Below, piece by piece: positions 20,295 through 64,000 of a stretch of DNA of 64,000 nucleotides. Positions within the stretch are counted from its first letter, which is position 1, and every line of letters begins with the position of its first letter. The notes under the pieces were generated by a model. That model worked only from the letters and a program-made list of their open reading frames with translations, had not been told where the DNA came from and made no database searches. Source of the DNA: Candidatus Saccharimonadota bacterium (lineage in GTDB: Bacteria > Patescibacteriota > Saccharimonadia > Saccharimonadales > CAIOMD01); contig DALYDK010000001.1 of assembly GCA_031973215.1 (NCBI GenBank), positions 38,122-102,121 on the forward strand, written 5' to 3'. The position numbers were made by a program, and so were the translations under genes.

Positions 20295-20295
20295 C

Positions 20296-20324
20296 TTGAA
20301 TTAACAGGTTAAATCTGCTAAGAT
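20296..20324 (+). promoter_or_regulatory. Candidate sigma70-type promoter (TTGAAT-N17-TAAGAT)
   Basis: Hexamers at 20296-20301 and 20319-20324 with a 17-nt spacer. It lies just upstream of the GC-richer 20.33-20.84 kb segment. Confidence 0.35.
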
Positions 20325-20342
20325 AATATAGACCTGAAAGGG

Positions 20343-20582
20343 GTGAAAATAATGGTAACAGCTCCTGTTATCGTTGTCATCGTTGCAGTGCTGCTTTCTC
20401 TAGCAGCCATCTTTGTACAAAAAAGAACCGGACCAGCCCAAACTACAAAAGGCACCTACTCGGTGCTTGTACTAAAGGGTCGGCCGAAAATGAAGGCCAC
20501 AACTTCTGGTGCGGTAGAAATGCTTAGCCACCCTAGTAGTGTGAGCCTTGCTAAGAAGCCATCTCACATAGGAATGAGGTGA
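20343..20582 (+). CDS. Questionable small membrane protein (76-79 aa)
   Basis: It has an N-terminal TM-like stretch (VTAPVIVVIVAVLLSLAAIFV) and an AAGGGG Shine-Dalgarno-like sequence before the ATG at 20352. However, it lies in a GC-rich, hairpin-dense region that may be non-coding. Confidence 0.3.
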   Translation: MKIMVTAPVIVVIVAVLLSLAAIFVQKRTGPAQTTKGTYSVLVLKGRPKMKATTSGAVEMLSHPSSVSLAKKPSHIGMR

Positions 20583-20835
20583 ACGAAATGAAGTTCATTT
20601 GGCTCTTTTTTGTGTCAGATGCCGCTCAAAAGCGGCGTTTTGACAGAGCTCAGGCGCAGATCCACCATCTGCCTCGCCGAGACTGCTCGTAAAAAAGCAG
20701 CAATCTGAAGGCATGGGAGGGCTCATTAGTTTTGAGCCCCCCAGCCTTCGGTAAAACCCTTTTTATAACATGGTTGCCGCACAAGTAGGCCTAAATAAGT
20801 GTGTAGTTTTTGCACGGGCCCAGTGCGGCTTTTTC
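20583..20835 (+). ncRNA. Hairpin-dense GC-richer segment ending in an intrinsic terminator (candidate sRNA or structured 3' UTR)
   Basis: It contains consecutive stems. These include TGTCAGATGCCGCT-caaa-AGCGGCGTTTTGACA, GCAGAT-ccacc-ATCTGC, and CTGAAGGC..GGGAGGGCTCA-ttagtttt-TGAGCCCCCC..GCCTTCGG. The terminal stem GCCGCAC...GTGCGGC is followed by TTTTT (20831-20835). Confidence 0.35.
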
Positions 20836-20887
20836 ATAGCTCTAAAATAGACAAAATGCTTAAAATATGCTATTATATATAATTATA

Positions 20888-21715
20888 ATGGAAAAAGATA
20901 AAAAACTAACTGAGCCTACTGACGATACAACTAGCAACATAATTCAAAATCTTCTGGCCGATCCCGAGGCCGTTGCTAATAGGTTAAATCAGTTGCTAGA
21001 GGGTTCATCGGAATCACGTGTTTTAGCCGGTGATAAAATTTCATATACAGAATTTATTAAGCCAACCATTGGTGTTATTTCAGAATCTCAACTTTTATCT
21101 AAGCCGTATTATTTAGATGATTTTTCTGTTTATCAGGAAATTCCAGAGATTCTTGCGGAAATTTCAAGCAAGGTCGAGTCTTTGAATATTCCTGCTGAGA
21201 CCACAAGGATTTTTAATATTGTATTTCATACAGTACAGCAGGCGCAGTTTATGTATTTTAATCATTCACTGGGTGGCTCCGAAGCCGCCGAAAAACGAGC
21301 TAGTTTGCTTGCCGATATTATTGAATTTGACGCAGAAAATGATGATGTGAGCGACGAGGATAAACCAGTTTCAATTCAAGACCTAAAAGAAGCTGCCTTA
21401 TGTATGGAAAGAGCTGTAGTTTGTCACAATTTATTTAAATTTTTCGGGATAGACTCTACCCTTAAAACAGGCAGATTAGAATCAGATGACGGCTTTGAAT
21501 ATCATGCATGGGTTGAATTCTACAGAGAAGATGGACAGCGTTATCTGTATGACCCAACAAATCCTCATATAATAATTAGCGAAAGCGGCTCAGTTATTAA
21601 CATAAAGCCTATGCTTATTAAAATTGATAGTCAGGGGGGTCCTGTTACGACCTCATGGAAAACCCTAAGAGAAGATGGTACTGTTATCAGAGAAAAACAA
21701 CTCCAGTACTTTTAA
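20888..21715 (+). CDS. Transglutaminase-like cysteine protease-fold protein
   Basis: It has a Cys-His-Asp core pattern: AALCMERAVVCHNLFKFFGI...EYHAWVEFY...RYLYDPTN. The start is uncertain (ATG at 20867 or 20888). Confidence 0.65.
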   Translation: MEKDKKLTEPTDDTTSNIIQNLLADPEAVANRLNQLLEGSSESRVLAGDKISYTEFIKPTIGVISESQLLSKPYYLDDFSVYQEIPEILAEISSKVESLNIPAETTRIFNIVFHTVQQAQFMYFNHSLGGSEAAEKRASLLADIIEFDAENDDVSDEDKPVSIQDLKEAALCMERAVVCHNLFKFFGIDSTLKTGRLESDDGFEYHAWVEFYREDGQRYLYDPTNPHIIISESGSVINIKPMLIKIDSQGGPVTTSWKTLREDGTVIREKQLQYF

Positions 21716-36190: not shown

Positions 36191-38869
36191 TTAACGGAGG
36201 TGGAGGACGGTTGGGTCATCGTCTTTGTTTTTATGGTTATTGGGTGTCTCTGCCGCTCCGCGTGTTACCCCACTCAAGTCAACCAAGCCTTTATGACTAA
36301 TGGTGCTCTGTGGTTTTTCTGGCTTATTGACAGGAGCGCTATTTACTGGCTTTTTTATTAGCTCTTGCCTATTATTATGACTTTTTGGGACATTTTGAGG
36401 GCCGCCTGGAGCCTTTTCTGCGACTTGGGCGGCTTCTTTGGCTCTTTTGCGCCTTAGGCGCCTTTTTTGGCTTTCTGTGAGTTTTTGGACCGGAGCGGTA
36501 ATTATTGAACTGAGTGGTATTTTACCTGGGACGTTTGAAGAAGTGGGATTATTGTTTTGGCTGATCTGTTGCTGATTTGTATTCGTGGGTAGGGTTTTAT
36601 TGATTATTTCAGTTTCTACTTCAAGTTTTGATCTTGAGTATAAAGACCTAGAATGTTCAATTATTTGGGTTGAAAAATCTTTGGTTACAGATGGAATATT
36701 TAATGAAGTACCCGAAAAAGGAGCTGCCTTTTCTCCGTTAATGCTCATGCTTGTAACAAAATGTCTGTTATGAAAAGAAGATAGGTCTCCTGCTTCAAAT
36801 TGCGGCTCGTAGTATTTAACCAAAAATGGGCTATCATCTGGACTTACTCTGAAGGTAATCATTGTTCCAACATTACCAAAAACAGCGTCACGCACCGGTT
36901 CTTCCATTTGGGAAATGTACTGATTAGCAACCGTTAAGTTAAGTCCATATTTTCTGGCCTCGCTAAGAATGACGGCAAAGCTGTCGGTGGCAAAGTTCTG
37001 AAATTCGTCTACGTATAAATAAAATGGTCTTCTATCTTCAATTCTGGGAATGTCTGCACGGCTCATGGCGGCAAGCTGAATTTTAGTCACTAACATTGAT
37101 CCCAAAATGGCAGCATTATCTTCACCGACTAATCCCCTTGAAAGATTAACAATGAAAATTTTGCCTTCATCCATCATTTTTCTAATATTAAAGGAGCTTT
37201 TTTGCTGGCCAATTATATTTCTGACCAAAGGGTTGGCCACAAAAGCACCGACTTTATTTAGTACAGGTGCTACTGCTTCGTTTGCAAATTTCTCATTCCA
37301 AGATGCAAATTCTTTAAGCCAAAAACTTTTAACAACAACATCATCAACATGGCTAATCACTTCATCTCGGAATTTTTTTTCTGTAAGCATTCTGGTAATG
37401 TCTAGCATGGTCGAGCCGGGGTAGTCTAGTAGTGCAAGAATGGTGTATCTAAGAATATATTCTAGCCTTGGTCCCCAAGAGTCAAACATTCTTTTGAGTA
37501 CACCCACAAGCTCGCTACTTACTTGACCTTTGCTGACGGAGTCGTTTATCTCTAGCGGGTTGAACCCTATTGGGAAGGCGCTGTCTGCCGGGTTAAAGTA
37601 GACAACATCTTTGATTCTTCTTTCTGGAATATAGCGAATGACATTAGAGGCGTAATCGCCGTGAGGATCAATTACGGCAAAACCTTGATTATAAAAAATG
37701 TCTGAAAGAGTAAGTAGCTCTAATAGCCCAGACTTACCTGTGCCAGTTTGCCCTAATACATAAACATGCCTGCCTCTGTCGGCTCTAAGCAGTCCAAACA
37801 TTGCGTTGCTGCCTCTAAAATTAGTACTTCCGAATAAACTTATCTCGTTTTCAGGTACTTTTCCGTATGCAGGAATATTGGCTGGTGGTTCGGCAGTTTT
37901 GGTGGTAGCCCAGACAATATTGGGAGTTTCAACAGTGGTATGTGGCAAATGAAAAAGGCTGGCTAATTCTTCTATATTTAGGATAAAACCTTTGTCGGTG
38001 AAAAGCCTATCTTGGTAATCGTTTAATTTGTTTGGATCAAAACTTGGCAATTTACTTTGAAAACCGTTTAGGTTGGTTGTGTTAAATTGCTTGAATGTGC
38101 CGACCATTGCTTGCATCCTAAGCTTAGCCGTATTTTCGTCGTTACCAGCATATACTAGTCGTATTTTAACCTGGTAGCCAAGTTTTTTACTCTTATCTTC
38201 TATGGCTGTTATTCTGGTTTTGTCTCGCTCGGATGGTTCGTAGGCATTTGCTTGACCTGCCTCGGGTGGCTTAATTAAAGCTCCAAAAGCTTGCCCTACA
38301 TAAGATAGCCCCCCTCCCCCGCTCCAAACTGCTTTACCAGATTTAATTCGAGCTATCATTTTGCTGCTTTTTTGGTGCCACTCATCGCCAATAGGTCGAC
38401 ATAAAATTTGGACCCACATTTCTTCATCTAGCTGATCTAGCTTTGCCAAGGTTGCTGTAATCGCCGCCAGCGGATCAACTTCAAAACTGGGGAACGTTTT
38501 AATCGGTAGGGTTTCGTTGTCTGTTAATACTAGCTCTGTGCTGTAAATTACTCTCTGGGGCATTGCGCGGTTAGCATAGTCTGACGTTTCTGATATTTGG
38601 GCCTGGGGGTATTGGGCATATATTTGGCCCTCAACAAAAGCCTGTAGGTCTTTGGGAACCCAAGCGTAAAATCTTATTCGTTGTCCAATAGATGCAAATT
38701 CAAAACCAACATGCTGTTGCTTTAAATATCCGTCACTAAAAAGTGACTTGAGTGGTTTGTATATACCATGAAGCGCAGCAAACATCTGTTCTGCTGACAG
38801 TTCTTTTTTATCATTTGTCCTTGGAATCTCAACTAATAGAAGAGAATTATCTGTTGGTTTACTGTCCAC
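36191..38869 (-). CDS. T4SS coupling protein-like (TraD/VirD4/DUF87-type) P-loop ATPase with basic low-complexity tail
   Basis: 892 aa. Walker A is VYVLGQTGTGKSGL and Walker B is PFYLYVDEFQNFAT. It has a ~340-aa N-terminal domain with no TM helices. The C-terminus is Lys/Arg/Pro-rich. Confidence 0.7.
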   Translation of the reverse strand: MDSKPTDNSLLLVEIPRTNDKKELSAEQMFAALHGIYKPLKSLFSDGYLKQQHVGFEFASIGQRIRFYAWVPKDLQAFVEGQIYAQYPQAQISETSDYANRAMPQRVIYSTELVLTDNETLPIKTFPSFEVDPLAAITATLAKLDQLDEEMWVQILCRPIGDEWHQKSSKMIARIKSGKAVWSGGGGLSYVGQAFGALIKPPEAGQANAYEPSERDKTRITAIEDKSKKLGYQVKIRLVYAGNDENTAKLRMQAMVGTFKQFNTTNLNGFQSKLPSFDPNKLNDYQDRLFTDKGFILNIEELASLFHLPHTTVETPNIVWATTKTAEPPANIPAYGKVPENEISLFGSTNFRGSNAMFGLLRADRGRHVYVLGQTGTGKSGLLELLTLSDIFYNQGFAVIDPHGDYASNVIRYIPERRIKDVVYFNPADSAFPIGFNPLEINDSVSKGQVSSELVGVLKRMFDSWGPRLEYILRYTILALLDYPGSTMLDITRMLTEKKFRDEVISHVDDVVVKSFWLKEFASWNEKFANEAVAPVLNKVGAFVANPLVRNIIGQQKSSFNIRKMMDEGKIFIVNLSRGLVGEDNAAILGSMLVTKIQLAAMSRADIPRIEDRRPFYLYVDEFQNFATDSFAVILSEARKYGLNLTVANQYISQMEEPVRDAVFGNVGTMITFRVSPDDSPFLVKYYEPQFEAGDLSSFHNRHFVTSMSINGEKAAPFSGTSLNIPSVTKDFSTQIIEHSRSLYSRSKLEVETEIINKTLPTNTNQQQISQNNNPTSSNVPGKIPLSSIITAPVQKLTESQKRRLRRKRAKEAAQVAEKAPGGPQNVPKSHNNRQELIKKPVNSAPVNKPEKPQSTISHKGLVDLSGVTRGAAETPNNHKNKDDDPTVLHLR

Positions 38870-38943
38870 TGCTATATTATAACTCTTTTTATTTTAATGA
38901 TTGATAATAGCTGAACTAATATAGAAAGGCTTATTTTATAGGA

Positions 38944-39999
38944 TTAGGCTTCAGCTAGGGTGTATGTTGCCTTGGCAACTCGCTTGAATTGATCTTTCCC
39001 CTGTAGGTTAAGAAGGATTGTCGTTTCTTTGACATGTCGAGTTTTGAGGACTCTTTTTACAATTTCGTCTCTGTGAAGGGGTTCGCCGGCCTTTTTGAGA
39101 ACATCGCTAATAATATCGGCCACAGTTCCCTTTTTATAGCCCCATTCGTCTAGTGCATAAATACCACGGCCAATAAGTACGAACCTTTTATCTTTAATAA
39201 GTTCATTATGAATAGCCTGAGTAGTTACGTCTTTGCGCTTAAAATCACTTTCTCTAATTGCTGCTGCAATTTCGTTGAAATGCATGTGTGATCCCTTTTC
39301 GCTCAAAATAACATATATTTTATCCCTGATATTCTTAGGGTTTACTGTAGGCCATTTGATATAACCCCATTTACCATTAAGGTGAGCTAGGTCTTTAGAA
39401 ATAGATGCTACGGCCTCGATGTGGGTTGTATCATCGCTACCAAATAATTCGGCTACTTCGCTGATATCACATGGTTTTCCAATTTTTTTGCGGATAATCT
39501 CGACTATTTTACTGGCTTGCTCGCGTATAGTTTTTTCATCATAAAGCTCTCTATCAGCTGTAGAGGCAAAGTAGTGGTCAGATTCTTCAATGTTTGCAAG
39601 CTTTGGAGCCAGTTCTGCTATAAAGCTTAGTCTGGCTTGATCAATTTTTGTGCCGTCTTGCGTAAGTAGATCGGCCAGCTGACTAATTCTCATGACTGAG
39701 CCATTAGTTTTGATAATTTCTAAAATGTTGTCCTGGGCCTCTTCAAGAGACTGGAGCTTGCCTTCTTTAGCGGAATTCTTAAGCTTTGTAACAATTGCTT
39801 TTTCTAGTTGTCTAACTCTCTCTCTTGTTATGCCAAGGAGTTCGCCAATTTGCTCTAGGGTTTCTTTTCGGTCAAATAGGCCGAATCTTCTTGATACAAC
39901 TTCTTTTTCTCTTTCTCTATCAATGGAATTAAGTATAGAATTTATAGTCTCTTCAAGATTAATCGTTGAAAAACCGGAGCTTGTTTTTGGCTTTGTCAT
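38944..39999 (-). CDS. Sigma-70 region-4-like HTH fused to two HARE-HTH-like (RNAP delta-like) domains
   Basis: 351 aa. N-terminal VVSRRFGLFDRKETLEQIGELLGITRERVRQLEKAIVTKLK matches RpoD region 4.2. Later, HFNEIAAAI...RFVLIGRGIYALDEWGY and a second similar module follow. Confidence 0.65.
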   Translation of the reverse strand: MTKPKTSSGFSTINLEETINSILNSIDREREKEVVSRRFGLFDRKETLEQIGELLGITRERVRQLEKAIVTKLKNSAKEGKLQSLEEAQDNILEIIKTNGSVMRISQLADLLTQDGTKIDQARLSFIAELAPKLANIEESDHYFASTADRELYDEKTIREQASKIVEIIRKKIGKPCDISEVAELFGSDDTTHIEAVASISKDLAHLNGKWGYIKWPTVNPKNIRDKIYVILSEKGSHMHFNEIAAAIRESDFKRKDVTTQAIHNELIKDKRFVLIGRGIYALDEWGYKKGTVADIISDVLKKAGEPLHRDEIVKRVLKTRHVKETTILLNLQGKDQFKRVAKATYTLAEA

Positions 40000-51229: not shown

Positions 51230-51304
51230 GGTCTCATCGTCTAACGGTTAGGACACCAGGTTCTCATCCTGGCAATCGGGGTTCGATTCCCCGTGAGATC
51301 ACCA
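51230..51304 (+). tRNA. tRNA-Glu (anticodon CUC), CCA encoded
   Basis: A manual cloverleaf fits. Acceptor: GGTCTCA/TGAGATC. D arm: GTCT-aacggtta-GGAC. Anticodon arm: CCAGG-TTCTCAT-CCTGG. T arm: CGGGG-TTCGATT-CCCCG. It ends A-CCA. The D-arm sequence TCGTCTAACGGTTAGGACACC is typical of tRNA-Glu. Confidence 0.9.
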
Positions 51305-59541: not shown

Positions 59542-60138
59542 GTGGAAAAGCAATACGAATTATTTGAGCAAATTGGTGAAAGATTACGAAACGAAGAAAA
59601 TCTTTTAAAAAAGAAATTTTTTCGTTATGTGATTATTCTTCGATTTCCGTTGGCAATAATAATTGCTTTATTTGTTTTTTCTGCAATGAGTACCCAGGCT
59701 GCTTCGCCTGCAGCCAGCGCTGTTGTTTATAGTGAATCAAAAGCACAGACTATAAATGCAGCAGATATTTTTTATATAGATAAAATTAATAATTTGCGGG
59801 CATCTTTAGGGAAGCCATATTTGTTTTATAAGCCGGCCCTTGAAAGATCTGCAGCATTTAAAGCTCAAGATATGATTAATAATGATTATTGGGGTCATTT
59901 TAGCCCCTATGGTACTAGTTTTTCTGATTTTATATGGAGACAAACCCCTTTTAGCGAAAAGGTTGGTGAAAATTTGGCCAAATGTTATGAAAATAGGAAC
60001 GATGCCTTTAGGGCGCTTGTTAACAGCCCTTCCCATTATGAAATAATGGTTGGCGATTTTACTCACGTTGGAATTAGCGAAAGAACTAACTTAAACGACG
60101 GTTGCATTTATACTGTTCTGCATTTTGCAAAAAATTAG
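59542..60138 (+). CDS. CAP (SCP/PR-1, YkwD-like) domain protein with N-terminal TM/signal anchor
   Basis: 198 aa with a GTG start. It contains INNLRASLG...AQDM...YWGHFSP...VGENLA...SPSHYEIM...HVGIS. Confidence 0.8.
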   Translation: MEKQYELFEQIGERLRNEENLLKKKFFRYVIILRFPLAIIIALFVFSAMSTQAASPAASAVVYSESKAQTINAADIFYIDKINNLRASLGKPYLFYKPALERSAAFKAQDMINNDYWGHFSPYGTSFSDFIWRQTPFSEKVGENLAKCYENRNDAFRALVNSPSHYEIMVGDFTHVGISERTNLNDGCIYTVLHFAKN

Positions 60139-60187
60139 CCTTAATTTGCTATAATTACTTCTAAATTAGCAACAAGGAGAAGTTATC

Positions 60188-60922
60188 ATGCAGCAATCGG
60201 ACAACCCATCATTATCTAAGTCTGTTCTAGAGAGAATTTCTGCTGCTGAAGATACAAAAACAGCAACAATTACTGGAACTAGCTTAAAAATATTATTTCT
60301 TCTATTACTAACGGTAGGTGCGGGATATTTTGGCTGGCAAGCTATGTCTAGTGCATCCACTTCTGCAATTGTGACAATAGCCGGATTTTCTATTGTCGCC
60401 ATTGTCGCGGCTGTGGTAACCGCATTTAAGCCTACTTGGGCAATGTTTACTGGCCCTATATATGCTTTGGCCCAAGGATTTGTAATGGGTGCCATATCTC
60501 AGGTCTACAATGCTCAGTTCAATGGGATAGTTGTACAGGCAATAGGTCTAACTGGCGCAATATTTTTTGTTAGTTTATGGGCATTTTGGCTAGGGCTCAT
60601 TAAAGTTACTAATAAATTCCGAATTGGCGTCGTTATAGCAACGCTAGGAGTTGGCTTATACTACCTAATAGCATTTATTCTTAGTTTATTTGGGGTGACA
60701 GCGCCTTTAATATTTGATACCGGCACTTTTGGGATAATATTTAGCGTAGTGGTTGTATTTATTGCCACTTTAAATTTATTTTTAGATTTTGACTTTATTC
60801 AACAGGCAGAAGCCTCTAAGATGCCAAAAGTTTTTGAATGGTATGGTGCTTTCGCACTAATGGTTACATTAATTTGGCTATATATAGAAACACTAAGGCT
60901 TATTGGCAAGACTCGTTCTTAG
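60188..60922 (+). CDS. Bax inhibitor-1/YccA-family membrane protein
   Basis: 244 aa with about 7 TM helices and typical size and topology. This is a pattern-level call only. Confidence 0.65.
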   Translation: MQQSDNPSLSKSVLERISAAEDTKTATITGTSLKILFLLLLTVGAGYFGWQAMSSASTSAIVTIAGFSIVAIVAAVVTAFKPTWAMFTGPIYALAQGFVMGAISQVYNAQFNGIVVQAIGLTGAIFFVSLWAFWLGLIKVTNKFRIGVVIATLGVGLYYLIAFILSLFGVTAPLIFDTGTFGIIFSVVVVFIATLNLFLDFDFIQQAEASKMPKVFEWYGAFALMVTLIWLYIETLRLIGKTRS

Positions 60923-61720
60923 TTCTTTAGCTATAAATTTACTGTAATATTTATTTAGAACATGCCCTACCCTGGCTTTAATTACGGTTACATTATGCCG
61001 TTCTTTTGCTAGCTGTTGGTAGTTTTTGGGCATCACTAGTACGTCAAAAACACCGTAAATAATTTTAATATTTTGTTTAATATTTTGAATATCTGTAAGT
61101 GTTTTTTGGTTGACTATTGAGTTAACCAAACTCCTTTTAAAAGGTATCCATGTCTGTGCATTAATCTTAAATCCGCTAAAGCCCGCAGTTGCTATTTTTG
61201 CCGCCCTAAGAGTTGTCTTAGGATTGTTAACAATCATTTTATAAACTCTAAAATACGCATTATTTTTGCTTCTTGCCGTTTTTGAATATTGCTTTTCAGC
61301 TTGTGCTACATCGGCAGGCAGGTATATGGGAGGGCTACAAAGAAAAAGACTATCTATTTTAATTTTATTTCTTTTAGATATTTCAATTGCTATAAGTGAA
61401 CCCATAGAATGACCAACTACTATAATTGGTTCTTTCAGCCGAAGCTTTTTAATGGTTTTTTCAATAGATTTAGCGTGATCTTGTAAGTCGTAAGAACAAT
61501 TTGCGGGCTTTGGCGAGTTCCCAAATCCTAGCAGATCCAGAACAATTAATCTCAAGCCCTGCCCGTTTAAATTACTTATACAATCATCCCAGCACTTACC
61601 ATCGGTCGCTATGCCGTGCAAAAACAGAATAGGCTTCCCTTCTTTGTTGTCATATCTTACAAATAGTTTTGGAGTTCTGTAAAATAGATCCAATAATTTT
61701 TGAAAACTATTTTTTAGCAT
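60893..61720 (-). CDS. Alpha/beta-fold hydrolase
   Basis: 275 aa with HGIATDG and the nucleophile elbow VGHSMGS. Confidence 0.8.
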   Translation of the reverse strand: MLKNSFQKLLDLFYRTPKLFVRYDNKEGKPILFLHGIATDGKCWDDCISNLNGQGLRLIVLDLLGFGNSPKPANCSYDLQDHAKSIEKTIKKLRLKEPIIVVGHSMGSLIAIEISKRNKIKIDSLFLCSPPIYLPADVAQAEKQYSKTARSKNNAYFRVYKMIVNNPKTTLRAAKIATAGFSGFKINAQTWIPFKRSLVNSIVNQKTLTDIQNIKQNIKIIYGVFDVLVMPKNYQQLAKERHNVTVIKARVGHVLNKYYSKFIAKELRTSLANKP

Positions 61721-61789
61721 ATTGAATCATCTTCTAGTAATTTATCAATTTCTTAAGTCAATTATCTTATTATGGAATTCTTGTAATAA

Positions 61790-62353
61790 TTAGACGGTCA
61801 TTATTTCTTGCTCTTTGGCCTTGGACAGTTGATCGACTTTTGTTTTTATATTAGCCATTAAGTCATTCACCTTCTTCTCTAATGATGCTAGATCATCTTC
61901 TGTGATTTCTTTGGCATTTTTTGCTTTTTTAGCTTCATCTAGAATATCGTGTCTAATATTTCGACAAGAAATGTGGCAATCTTCAGCCTTAGTGCTTAGT
62001 TGTTTGACAATATCTTGTCTTCGCTCGGTAGTAAGTGGGGGTATTGGTATGCGAACAACTCGACCATCGTCACTAGGATTTAGCCCTAAGCTTTGATTAT
62101 TTCTAATTGCCTCACTAATAGCTTGAATATTGCTTGGGTCAAAAGGACTAATTTGTATTAGTTGGGCTTCTGGAGTGGTAATGTTACTGACTTGGTTAAG
62201 TGGCATTTCCGTTCCATATGCAACAACAGTAACTCCATCTAACATGCTTGGGTGTGCCCTACCGGTTCGGAGCTTTTTTAGCTCTTCTTCAAAATGTGCC
62301 AGAGCACCGTTTAATTTATTTTCAGTATCTTTAATAGCTTTATTAGTATCCAT
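61790..62353 (-). CDS. frr: Ribosome recycling factor
   Basis: 187 aa with LRTGRAHPSMLDGV...PFDPS...GLNPSDDG..VRIPIPPLTTERR. Confidence 0.95.
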   Translation of the reverse strand: MDTNKAIKDTENKLNGALAHFEEELKKLRTGRAHPSMLDGVTVVAYGTEMPLNQVSNITTPEAQLIQISPFDPSNIQAISEAIRNNQSLGLNPSDDGRVVRIPIPPLTTERRQDIVKQLSTKAEDCHISCRNIRHDILDEAKKAKNAKEITEDDLASLEKKVNDLMANIKTKVDQLSKAKEQEIMTV

Positions 62354-62404
62354 TTGTTCCCTTTATTACTATGATTTATATTTTACGCTAAATTAACGGT
62401 TAAA

Positions 62405-63130
62405 TTAATCTATTTTTTTACGCTCTAGCTTTCGAGCGATAGCAATACCTAGCATGCCACTTGAATTTATGGACCAGTGCACTAGCCACGGGGCAACAAT
62501 ACTATTAGATATGATTCTAAGCCAAGCAAAAATTGCCCCGGCAATGCTTGTTATGACAACCACCCCAATAATCGATCCGTATTTTCGGCGTTTTAGGTCA
62601 CGGTTTGCTTTGGCGAGTATTCGATTGTTTTCTAGCATGGCAATGGTTGGAAAAATATGCCATAAGCCAAAAATTAACGAAGAAATTATAATAGCTGTAA
62701 TTGTAGAATTATGTTGCAATAAAAGCCCAAGTAATACTCCCCTGAAAAGCACTTCTTCTATTAATGCCGTTCCAAATGGAACTCTTACGGTTGCTTCGTA
62801 AGATATTAATTTGCCGCTGGCATTAGCTAGGTCGTCTCCTAGGAAAAATCTACGCAGTATGGGGATAGTGGCAATTATGGATGTTCCGAGTACAATGGCT
62901 GCAACCGCTAGAAAAGCAATATATATACCTGGCCAAATTTTATCGAATGCAAGGCCCATTTGCTCAAAATTTAGGCCAAAGCTTAAGCCCAATAGTACGG
63001 CAACACCAGTGATTCCTATATTTAAGTATAAATGCAACTTTTCTGGAACGGACTTAGCTAGCACCGTGCTATACAGTAAAATTAAAATAACTAGGACAGC
63101 TTCTTGGGCGTAAGGGGTTGGAATAACCAT
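62405..63130 (-). CDS. CPBP-family intramembrane glutamic endopeptidase (CAAX protease/Abi-like)
   Basis: 241 aa and multi-TM. It has EEVLFRGVLL and FGLWH motifs. Confidence 0.85.
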   Translation of the reverse strand: MVIPTPYAQEAVLVILILLYSTVLAKSVPEKLHLYLNIGITGVAVLLGLSFGLNFEQMGLAFDKIWPGIYIAFLAVAAIVLGTSIIATIPILRRFFLGDDLANASGKLISYEATVRVPFGTALIEEVLFRGVLLGLLLQHNSTITAIIISSLIFGLWHIFPTIAMLENNRILAKANRDLKRRKYGSIIGVVVITSIAGAIFAWLRIISNSIVAPWLVHWSINSSGMLGIAIARKLERKKID

Positions 63131-63186
63131 ATTTCAATGCCTTATTATACGCCGAAAAATTATATAAGCATAAATACTTAAATATG

Positions 63187-63657
63187 AAAAAAGGCCCCGG
63201 TTGGGGCCTACCTCTTTGTAAGAGGGGTTTGTTGGAATGCCGACGCCTTATGTAAATGGCGCTTGGCTTAACTTATGTGCCTCGTGCTACCGCGGGGTTT
63301 GCAACGGCTTCCAACAATTGGTCAGGGGGGCTTTCTCCCTGGTCCATGCGCGTTTTTGTTTCTTTTGCGCTATTGGGTTGGACGACCCAACGATCTTTTG
63401 GTCTTTTCGACCCAGGCATCTATTTTTTCCTGTTTGACGGTTCCGTCTCGATTCCAGTGTTGCACTGTCCGAGCTTGTCAGGCTCGAACCACTGTTTCGA
63501 GCCCGGTTGGGCTATCTTTGCGGCGTCTTTCGATCACCTCTAGAGATATCCGTCTCCCAGCCACCGCTTTTGCTGCTTTGAAGGAGGAGGCTTAGCGGCT
63601 TTTCCAAGAGTTTCTGACCCTGTGCGGGGTCATCAACACTCCCTCTCTTACGAGATA
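63187..63657 (-). ncRNA. Large structured RNA A (~470 nt), unknown class
   Basis: It lies between a perfect TTGACA-N17-TATAAT promoter and the terminator GGCCCC-aacc-GGGGCC plus U6. It is visibly GC-richer than the flanks and full of short perfect hairpins. The plus strand shows overlapping ORFs in three frames, typical of non-coding GC-rich DNA. It is homologous to RNA B. Confidence 0.6.
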
Positions 63658-63663
63658 AATTAC

Positions 63664-63692
63664 ATTATACACTATATATAAAAAAATGTCAA
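63664..63692 (-). promoter_or_regulatory. Consensus sigma70 promoter of RNA A
   Basis: On the minus strand, TTGACA (63692-63687), a 17-nt spacer, and TATAAT (63669-63664). Confidence 0.7.
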
Positions 63693-63723
63693 TATTATAT
63701 TGTCATATTCTTGTTTTAAATAT

Positions 63724-64000
63724 GAAAAAAGGCCCCGGTTGGGGCCTACCTCTTTGTAAGAGGGGTTTAACGGAATGCCGCCACTTCTACCAACTTGGGT
63801 ATAGGTGCTGGACTAAATTGTCCAGTGCTCCCTTGCGGGAAAGGCAACGGCGATTCCGTAAATGGTCAGGGGGGTGTGATCCTTTTGGGATCCTCCCTGG
63901 CTTCCTGTCGCTTTCGCGACTCTTGCACTATAAGCTTCTCCTAGAAGAAGCAGTGCAGTGGGTGGATAGCGACCCATTTTAGCCTACCGGCAAGGGTTTT
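63724..64000 (-). ncRNA. Large structured RNA B (3' ~280 nt; 5' end beyond the window), paralog of RNA A
   Basis: The ~52-nt 3' module including the terminator (63716-63767) is identical to 63179-63230. Upstream blocks are collinear with RNA A, with compensatory substitutions and GNRA-capped hairpins (GTCGC-GAAA-GCGAC, TCCC-GCAA-GGGA). Confidence 0.55.

Follow-up and report, generated by a model that had tools for sequence, protein, structure and literature searches.

Large, intricately folded RNAs are few in bacteria: ribosomal RNA, RNase P RNA, transfer-messenger RNA (tmRNA), group I and II introns, OLE, GOLLD, ROOL, raiA and HEARO make up the list. To our knowledge, almost all of these are a ribozyme, a ribonucleoprotein machine or an unexpected assembly. 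Regulatory RNAs that occur as multi-copy siblings, such as Qrr and PrrF, are of a different order, being simple structures of ~100 nt that act through Hfq-dependent base-pairing. The Patescibacteria, or candidate phyla radiation (CPR), have tiny genomes with little room for non-essential sequence. Even so, one or two structured RNA genes of ~480 nt are maintained under selection in one lineage within the CPR order Saccharimonadales. These were located in a 64,000-nt stretch of contig DALYDK010000001.1 (the window), where two tandem units, A and B, occupy the minus strand between 63187 and 64000. The units are probably independently transcribed genes for a lineage-specific, large (~470-500 nt) and highly structured non-coding RNA, which is genuine, apparently undescribed and narrow in its known distribution.

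Unit A is complete within the window, while unit B runs past its edge (Table 1). Full-length B was recovered through public contigs (given L numbers here) that carry the protein of the downstream CPBP protease gene; in other contigs of the same species it measures ~494 nt (L003:8909-9408), with window position 64000, where the in-window part of B ends, corresponding to L003:9131. Extension past 64000, as envisaged in the original prediction made from the window alone, supplied both the 5' end of B and its upstream neighbour (L003), a gene for an Abhydrolase_9 protein (alpha/beta-hydrolase, membrane). The CPBP protease gene and frr lie downstream of the RNA locus, and the RNA starts 8 nt past the Abhydrolase_9 stop codon. 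The promoter and terminator previously assigned to A were both found exactly where they had been placed. B has its own promoter, TTGACA-17-TATCAT, matching the consensus at 11/12 positions. The RNA occurs as four sequence types (A-D, described below), and the promoter hexamers and the 17-nt spacer length are common to all of them, while the spacer sequence differs; in type D, for instance, hexamers and spacer length are as in A, and the spacer letters are different. In type C, the terminator stem displays a compensatory CG-to-UA change. Retention of hexamers and spacer length across four types supports the earlier view of A and B as independent transcription units, and from the signals observed we infer that each is transcribed independently.

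The two units share a 3' module, as originally proposed: 53 identical nt were found within a direct repeat (D1) of 65 nt and 95% identity, at an offset of 538. The coordinates first given for B were one base too low, however; the terminator occupies 63746-63725, and the counterpart of 63179-63230 is 63717-63768. In the A copy, the module contains CGGCAUUCC, the 3' strand of helix P1 (or hairpin CCUCUU-ACA-AAGAGG), the terminator and then 9 nt past the U-tract.

Substitution patterns were unlike those of coding sequence. Mismatches between types B and C were spread evenly over positions modulo 3 (36/44/33, p = 0.42), showing no codon periodicity, and the eight indels separating them were each 1-2 nt long. 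The flanking genes, as controls, gave 27/5/120 for CPBP and 28/11/103 for RRF (p < 1e-22). The overall B-C mismatch was 0.24, compared with 0.47-0.50 at third codon positions of the flanking genes (47% for Abhydrolase_9), which shows that the RNA is under purifying selection. Open reading frames (ORFs) on the minus strand reached 48 aa in A and 54 aa in B, in frames that are not conserved, and the conserved DNA blocks fall in one frame of the sense ORF of A and in another frame of that of B; longer ORFs (95-106 aa) were antisense. No gene had been called at the RNA locus in any of ~20 public contigs, and a profile of the longest antisense translations had no match among 5.8 billion proteins. 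The earlier assertion that the locus is non-coding was upheld by the missing periodicity and the 1-2 nt indels, with the correction that short minus-strand ORFs do exist. A protein-coding gene was effectively refuted, given that three-base periodicity, indels in multiples of three and conservation of frame were all absent.

Both units are predicted to fold with unusual stability. The minimum free energy (MFE) of A was -172 kcal/mol (z = -6.4) and the MFE z-score of B was -6.7; 0/100 shuffles folded as well in either case. Two covariance models, R1 and R2, were built solely from types B and C and then used to locate and align A and D. R1 matched A at 63606-63435 (E = 5e-7) and R2 matched it at 63344-63217 (E = 2.5e-13), while R2 matched B at 63902-63755 (E = 6e-42). 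Alignments of the four types by MAFFT only were too poor in the variable centre for pair counts, and alignments fitted to the models were used. In the 5' sub-domain (P4-P7, alignment A9), 94.6% of cells were paired, with both sides changed in 20/44 pairs; 0/500 shuffles reached the observed values, and slid controls, in which pairing partners were shifted by 1-3 columns, were 25-36% paired. The 3' sub-domain (alignment A12) had 93.0% of cells paired and both sides changed in 12/45 pairs, values reached by 0/500 shuffles on four of five measures, and its slid controls were 34-51% paired. Aligning the variants was by itself enough to reveal 25 pairs with compensatory change. Among hand-picked helices, pairing was 98% within types and 72% between them; P4 (falling to 33%) and P7i (42%) varied most between types. 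The covariation signal is large despite the model-fitted alignments and the four deep lineages.

The elements that had been proposed by comparing A with B were all recovered. These included the colinear conserved blocks, the closing helix of the 3' domain with its compensatory changes, the CAGGG/CCCUG stem, to which B adds a further hairpin, the UGGGU/ACCCA hairpins, the GAAA- and GCAA-capped stems, and the capacity of the 5' end of A to pair with CCCCUCUUAC ahead of the terminator. Helices were maintained with many double changes among types A-D, which supports the conservation of structure claimed at the outset. The 5' domain comprises a small CCC/GGG hairpin, the covarying P4 and a pair of hairpins closed by P5, one of which is long and has GUGCAA as an internal loop; the variable centre then holds three or four hairpins specific to each type, and the long helix of the 3' domain (GUUGGAA-GCCG/CGGC-A-UUCCAAC in A) closes a multi-way junction. 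Comparison of the types shows a closed, two-domain architecture of at least 12 helices, kept by compensatory substitution, in which junction and terminal sequences are invariant. The locus combines transcription signals of its own, a lack of coding potential and a structure conserved by compensatory change, the general marks of a large structured non-coding RNA, as far as sequence comparison can tell.

The predicted transcript begins with AUCUCG-GNRA-GAGAGGGA and ends with CCCCUCUU-loop-AAGAGGU, after which the terminator follows. These ends can make either a long terminal helix (P1) or one local hairpin each, such that the 5' terminal strand pairs with the 3' strand or folds into a local, GNRA-capped hairpin. 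One natural U-to-C variant favours the long-range pairing of the ends, while the conserved GNRA favours the local hairpin at the 5' end. The sequence of the 5' terminal strand is invariant in types A-D, with a loop of GAAA, GUAA or GUGA according to type; a GNRA loop in B changes from GCAA to GUAA between strains and keeps its class. The terminal strands are thus invariant while the internal helices covary freely.

Table 1. Features of the RNA locus in the window.
Feature	Coordinates	Strand	Description
Unit A	63187..63657	-	Complete RNA gene of ~471 nt, from predicted start to end of U-tract
Unit B	63725..64000	-	3' 276 nt of ~494; remainder past window edge
Promoter of A	63664..63692	-	TTGACA (63692-63687), 17-nt spacer, TATAAT (63669-63664); consensus match 12/12
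Terminator of A	63187..63208	-	GGCCCC-AACC-GGGGCC + U6; intrinsic
Terminator of B	63725..63746	-	Intrinsic; same sequence as that of A
Shared 3' module, A copy	63178..63242	-	Direct repeat D1
Shared 3' module, B copy	63716..63780	-	Direct repeat D1
5' terminal strand of A	63641..63656	-	AUCUCG-UAA-GAGAGGG; inverted repeat I11, alifold P1
5' sub-domain of A	63435..63606	-	Helices P4-P7; long hairpin with CUGACAA loop and GUGCAA internal loop; R1
3' sub-domain of A	63217..63344	-	CAGGG/CCCUG hairpin, then long closing helix; R2
Promoter-like site of downstream CPBP-frr genes	63159..63188	-	TTCATA-18-TATAAT; 10/12 match; belongs to the neighbour, not to the RNA

The four sequence types all occur at the same locus and are 57-76% identical; B and C are the closest pair (76%), every other pair falling between 57 and 65%. 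All of the contigs examined from the species carried type B. Type A was an extra tandem copy confined to the window, L002 and L003, the 10 other contigs of the species having B alone; hence, the tandem pair originally described is real in the window strain, but it is a strain polymorphism and not the general state, since most strains carry only B. Type C represents a sister lineage (L157, L159, L164) and type D a third lineage (L162), in which Abhydrolase_9 is 90% identical. Between the window and the type C lineage, the CPBP protein is 97% identical and its DNA only 77.6% (62405-63130 on the minus strand vs L157:632-1360), which implies that synonymous sites are saturated and that purifying selection on this gene is very strong.

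Searches for relatives by nhmmer (--max) and the two covariance models produced no additional copy in the window or in ~1.3 Mb of fetched loci, and blastn found no match in phage and plasmid collections. Among genome contigs, the exact pattern AGCCCAAC..CCTGACAAG..GTGCAA returned the same species only (contig L018). Among metagenome contigs, the exact pattern GGGANNNTTGA..CCCGCACAGGG returned one same-species contig and 17 chance matches, while four exact patterns gave no real match among viral contigs. The motifs used for scanning are themselves variable (type C has CCCUGCACAGGG, CCCAGC and GUGCAC; type D has CCACCCUGACCU); since none is invariant across these types, negative pattern scans do not bound the distribution of the family. 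The block CGGCATTCC-N6-CCCCTCT..AGAGG is conserved in all four types and was scanned on viral contigs only. A 12-mer match at window position 21628 lay inside a coding region and was dismissed as chance. Contig L018 (CAYLXL010000087.1) is a 3.4-kb contig filed under an 'uncultured Gammaproteobacteria' metagenome-assembled genome and near-identical to the RNA locus, which suggests a binning error.

The RNA has been lost repeatedly. In relatives with 62-82% identical flanking proteins, the two neighbouring genes are no more than ~100 nt apart and the RNA is absent. One relative without the RNA body retains a ~70-nt remnant of the 3' module (GGCGGCCATTCCGACAAACCCCTCTTtgttAAGAGGTGGCCCCgaaaGGGGCC; L165:3012-3072, L166:1325-1385), which in L165 includes the CGGCCAUUCCGAC strand of the 3'-domain closing helix, now partnerless. 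Gene callers had absorbed this remnant into an over-long CPBP ORF of 291 aa. In another relative lacking the RNA (L160), a near-identical terminator (GGCCCC-GAAA-GGGGCC-U5) stands directly after the hydrolase stop codon. The remnant and the terminator-only state together imply that the RNA was ancestral to a wider clade and was deleted several times, and repeated deletion in relatives implies that it is accessory.

Divergence among the types was not clock-like. The three lineages are approximately equidistant in their flanking genes, and yet D and A are much farther from B than C is. A recombination tract between the D and B lineages spans the 3' end of the RNA and the first ~600 nt of CPBP with 90-97% identity (L162:5380-6100 vs L001:9881-10580), against ~80% in their other flanks; the two lineages are found together in one metagenome (JGI 3300056808). 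The uneven divergence would be accounted for by differential loss of old paralogs, by exchange between lineages or by both. Recombination or gene conversion, together with an ancestral terminator, accounts better for the identity of the 3' module than function alone does. The locus is a small, recombining array of sibling genes, and the RNA it encodes is accessory rather than essential. A further strain-level indel was seen close by, where a hypothetical ORF of 117 aa after frr (L001:11356-11709 vs L003:11341-11411) is present in some strains only and absent from the window strain, at a place corresponding to ~61720-61790 in the window.

The RNA did not resemble any known class. None of the 4227 families in Rfam 15 matched the RNA units at the gathering threshold, and the only match of that quality in the window was a tRNA at 51230-51301. 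At E <= 10, the window region and full-length A and B (L003) returned chance matches latching onto the terminator only; the best sub-threshold match was SraG, with 25.8 bits against a threshold of 50. The Rfam check suggested in the original prediction, now including full-length B, thus matched no family. ARAGORN identified neither tRNA nor tmRNA in 60000-64000, and tmRNA was discarded for want of a tRNA-like domain in this interval; with both programs negative, the earlier claim that A and B belong to no known class is supported. Bacterial RNase P RNA is essential and single-copy, and is recognized by the P4 pseudoknot of CR-I (GGAAAGUCC) and CR-V (ACAGAA..CCGGCUUA). Neither GGAAAGUCC nor ACAGAA-CCGGCUUA was seen on reading the sequences of A and B; RNase P was rejected because no model matched at E <= 10 and because close relatives have lost the RNA and some strains have it twice.

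Other candidates were also rejected. A group I or II intron did not agree with an RNA that has a protein gene on either side, carries a promoter and a terminator of its own and matches no intron model. An omega RNA of IscB or TnpB (HEARO) did not agree with Abhydrolase_9 and CPBP as neighbours, nor with two invariant ends and no variable guide. A riboswitch or other cis-regulatory leader was set against the separate promoter-like site that follows the strong terminator, and against relatives that keep the genes without the element. An integron cassette or attC site, a miniature inverted-repeat transposable element (MITE) and a CsrB-like sponge were dismissed by inspection rather than by formal testing. 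The literature searched (including PMC11109978) contained no account of an RNA of this kind in Saccharibacteria or Patescibacteria.

Four other explanations were weighed against independently transcribed RNA genes, and each was less well supported. The locus might be a non-autonomous selfish or mobile RNA element (an ORF-less retroelement, a guide-RNA-like module derived from an insertion sequence, or MITE-like) that entered the locus downstream of the Abhydrolase_9 stop codon but ahead of the terminator of that gene, and that spreads or duplicates through its conserved ends. The same site without RNA in relatives of 62-82% flanking-protein identity would fit, as would one or two copies depending on the strain, terminal strands that form an invariant, imperfect inverted repeat around a diverging interior, and the identical 3' modules flanking copy A. 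We consider it unlikely, however, because the L165 remnant and the terminator-only state of L160 are what deletion of an ancestral gene would leave, rather than empty target sites, and because nhmmer and the two covariance models found a single locus in 64 kb plus ~150 kb of related sequence. Moreover, no transposase, TnpB/IscB, reverse transcriptase or integrase occurs in the 20 ORFs of at least 330 aa scanned in the window, no HEARO or group II model in Rfam matched, phage and plasmid collections were negative, and promoter and terminator are conserved in the manner of a cellular gene. A cis-acting role is quite unlikely, whether as a long structured 3' untranslated region (UTR) stabilising or regulating Abhydrolase_9, or as a 5' leader or attenuator of CPBP-frr. 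The proximity of the RNA start to the Abhydrolase_9 stop (8 nt), the use of the former terminator of that gene, and the alternative pairings of the 3' end just before the terminator (long-range P1 vs the local CCUCUU/AAGAGG hairpin) would all suit such a role. Yet all four types retain a near-consensus promoter for the RNA itself, and beyond the strong terminator a different promoter serves the downstream gene; the site at 63159-63188 in particular argues against a CPBP leader. Relatives that lack the RNA still have this pair of genes, spaced by ~100 nt or less; a length of 470-500 nt with at least 12 helices far exceeds known leaders, and a UTR would not be expected as a tandem pair in which each copy has a promoter and a terminator. 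The RNA is, then, probably not cis-regulatory.

That the RNA belongs to a known class (RNase P, tmRNA, group I intron, or OLE/ROOL/GOLLD/raiA) but has diverged so far that Rfam misses it in CPR bacteria is very improbable. Size and closed-end architecture do resemble RNase P and other stable RNAs, and passages of PMC13011429 present CPR bacteria as known for unusual RNAs and introns, which was counted in favour. Set against this, full-length A and B had no match at E <= 10, ARAGORN reported no tmRNA, RNase P motifs were not seen, and the RNA does not interrupt a gene in the way an intron does; deletion in close relatives and variable copy number would be intolerable for an essential RNA. Least credible, to the point of being scarcely worth entertaining, is one or more small-protein genes whose apparent structure is a by-product of GC-rich coding sequence. 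The minus-strand ORFs (48 aa in A, 54 aa in B) and the antisense ORFs (95-106 aa) speak for it; substitutions without three-base periodicity, B-C indels all of 1-2 nt, sense ORFs in different frames over conserved blocks, the lack of a gene call in ~20 contigs and the lack of a match among 5.8 billion proteins speak against it.

Several observations also weigh against the preferred interpretation of independently transcribed genes for a structured RNA. The alignments that yielded the covariation counts were fitted to models built from B and C, and so are biased towards the modelled structure, and the counts rest on few independent events, there being four divergent types in three closely related lineages. 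So far, the RNA has been seen only in these three lineages, at one locus. Invariance of the terminal strands could be a constraint at the DNA level, through recombination, and not at the RNA level. The RNA is dispensable, having been deleted in several close relatives, while copy A is missing from most strains. Abundance and transcript ends are predicted from sequence signals alone, and a scaffold or ribozyme mechanism is proposed by analogy only.

If A and B are indeed RNA genes of this kind, transcription would start a few bases after the near-consensus sigma-70 promoter and would stop at an intrinsic terminator that originally served the upstream Abhydrolase_9 gene. By analogy with OLE, ROOL, GOLLD and raiA, the product most likely works in trans as a folded particle; such a compactly folded RNA might act as a ribonucleoprotein scaffold, catalyse a reaction or bind a ligand. 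Surfaces for protein binding or tertiary contacts would lie in the invariant termini and junction motifs, and the poorly conserved central hairpins would be peripheral. The locus itself behaves as a small array of sibling genes, in which recombination via the shared 3' module adds, removes and swaps members. A bolder proposal, held only tentatively, is that these genes represent an undescribed class of ~480-nt RNA in epibionts of the Saccharimonadales (CPR), with a recombining sibling array, a ribonucleoprotein or catalytic core and a wider family in CPR bacteria. Under that proposal, the fast-changing central hairpins might diversify between strains, with a possible link to parasitic lifestyle or to conflict with mobile elements.

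Were this class to prove real, it would lengthen the short list of large RNAs of unknown function, and it would offer both a compact target for structure determination and a handle on CPR biology; in that case, a wider CPR family, invisible so far, would come to light in a proper covariance-model search. The locus is also a clean natural experiment, in which four diverged versions can be compared, together with a presence/absence polymorphism among strains and several deletions that arose independently. Passages of PMC10633639 describe some Saccharibacteria as now genetically tractable.

Pfam was applied to 20 of the 22 ORFs of at least 330 aa in the window, and all 20 were ordinary chromosomal housekeeping genes; transposase, TnpB/IscB, reverse transcriptase, integrase and Cas were absent among them, and no partner or mobile-element gene was evident near the RNA locus, considering its neighbours and these 20 ORFs. 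Elsewhere in the window, a second GC-rich stretch (0.46) without a long ORF was noted on the plus strand at 20585-20850, inside the ORF-poor interval 20295-20866. An ORF of 79 aa lies upstream of this stretch, and a terminator-like hairpin with a T-run forms its end; its MFE z-score is -6.1 and no Rfam family matches it at E <= 1, so that a further unannotated structured RNA may be present here. On the minus strand, 36191-38869 encodes a protein of 892 aa with a type IV secretion coupling-protein/HerA-like ATPase domain, and the adjoining gene (38944-39999, also minus) encodes sigma-70 region 4 and HARE-HTH domains. This pair of genes (36191-39999) may be part of a competence, conjugation-like or pilus-associated module.

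Comparison with described systems places the RNA closest to OLE, ROOL, GOLLD and raiA. Like these, it is several hundred nt long with its own transcription signals and many helices kept by covariation; the nucleotides at its junctions are invariant, stems are capped by GNRA loops, its GC content is high for an AT-rich genome, and it is not essential to every relative. It does not match their Rfam models even at E <= 10, and its host is a CPR bacterium (Saccharimonadales), whereas they are found in Bacillota, Lactobacillales or phages. Unlike them, it occurs as divergent sibling copies in tandem, in three lineages so far, and it is not known to have associated protein genes, as OLE does in oapA/B/C, and lacks the phage or tRNA context of GOLLD and ROOL. 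RNase P RNA is alike in size class, in a terminal helix joining the ends, in a multi-domain fold and in having its own promoter and terminator; it is set apart by the lack of an Rfam match, by CR-I and CR-V of P4 not being seen, and by the dispensability and variable copy number of the present RNA. HEARO/IscB and TnpB omega RNAs are also large and structured, with patchy distribution and conserved ends, but no HEARO model in Rfam matched, no IscB or TnpB adjoins the locus or occurs in the large ORFs scanned in the window, and both ends are invariant with no variable guide segment. The Qrr and PrrF RNAs provide the closest likeness in gene organization, as tandem paralogs with their own promoter and terminator, conserved modules beside diverged parts, and a copy number that varies by strain; in comparison, the present RNA is five times larger and has a conserved, complex architecture.

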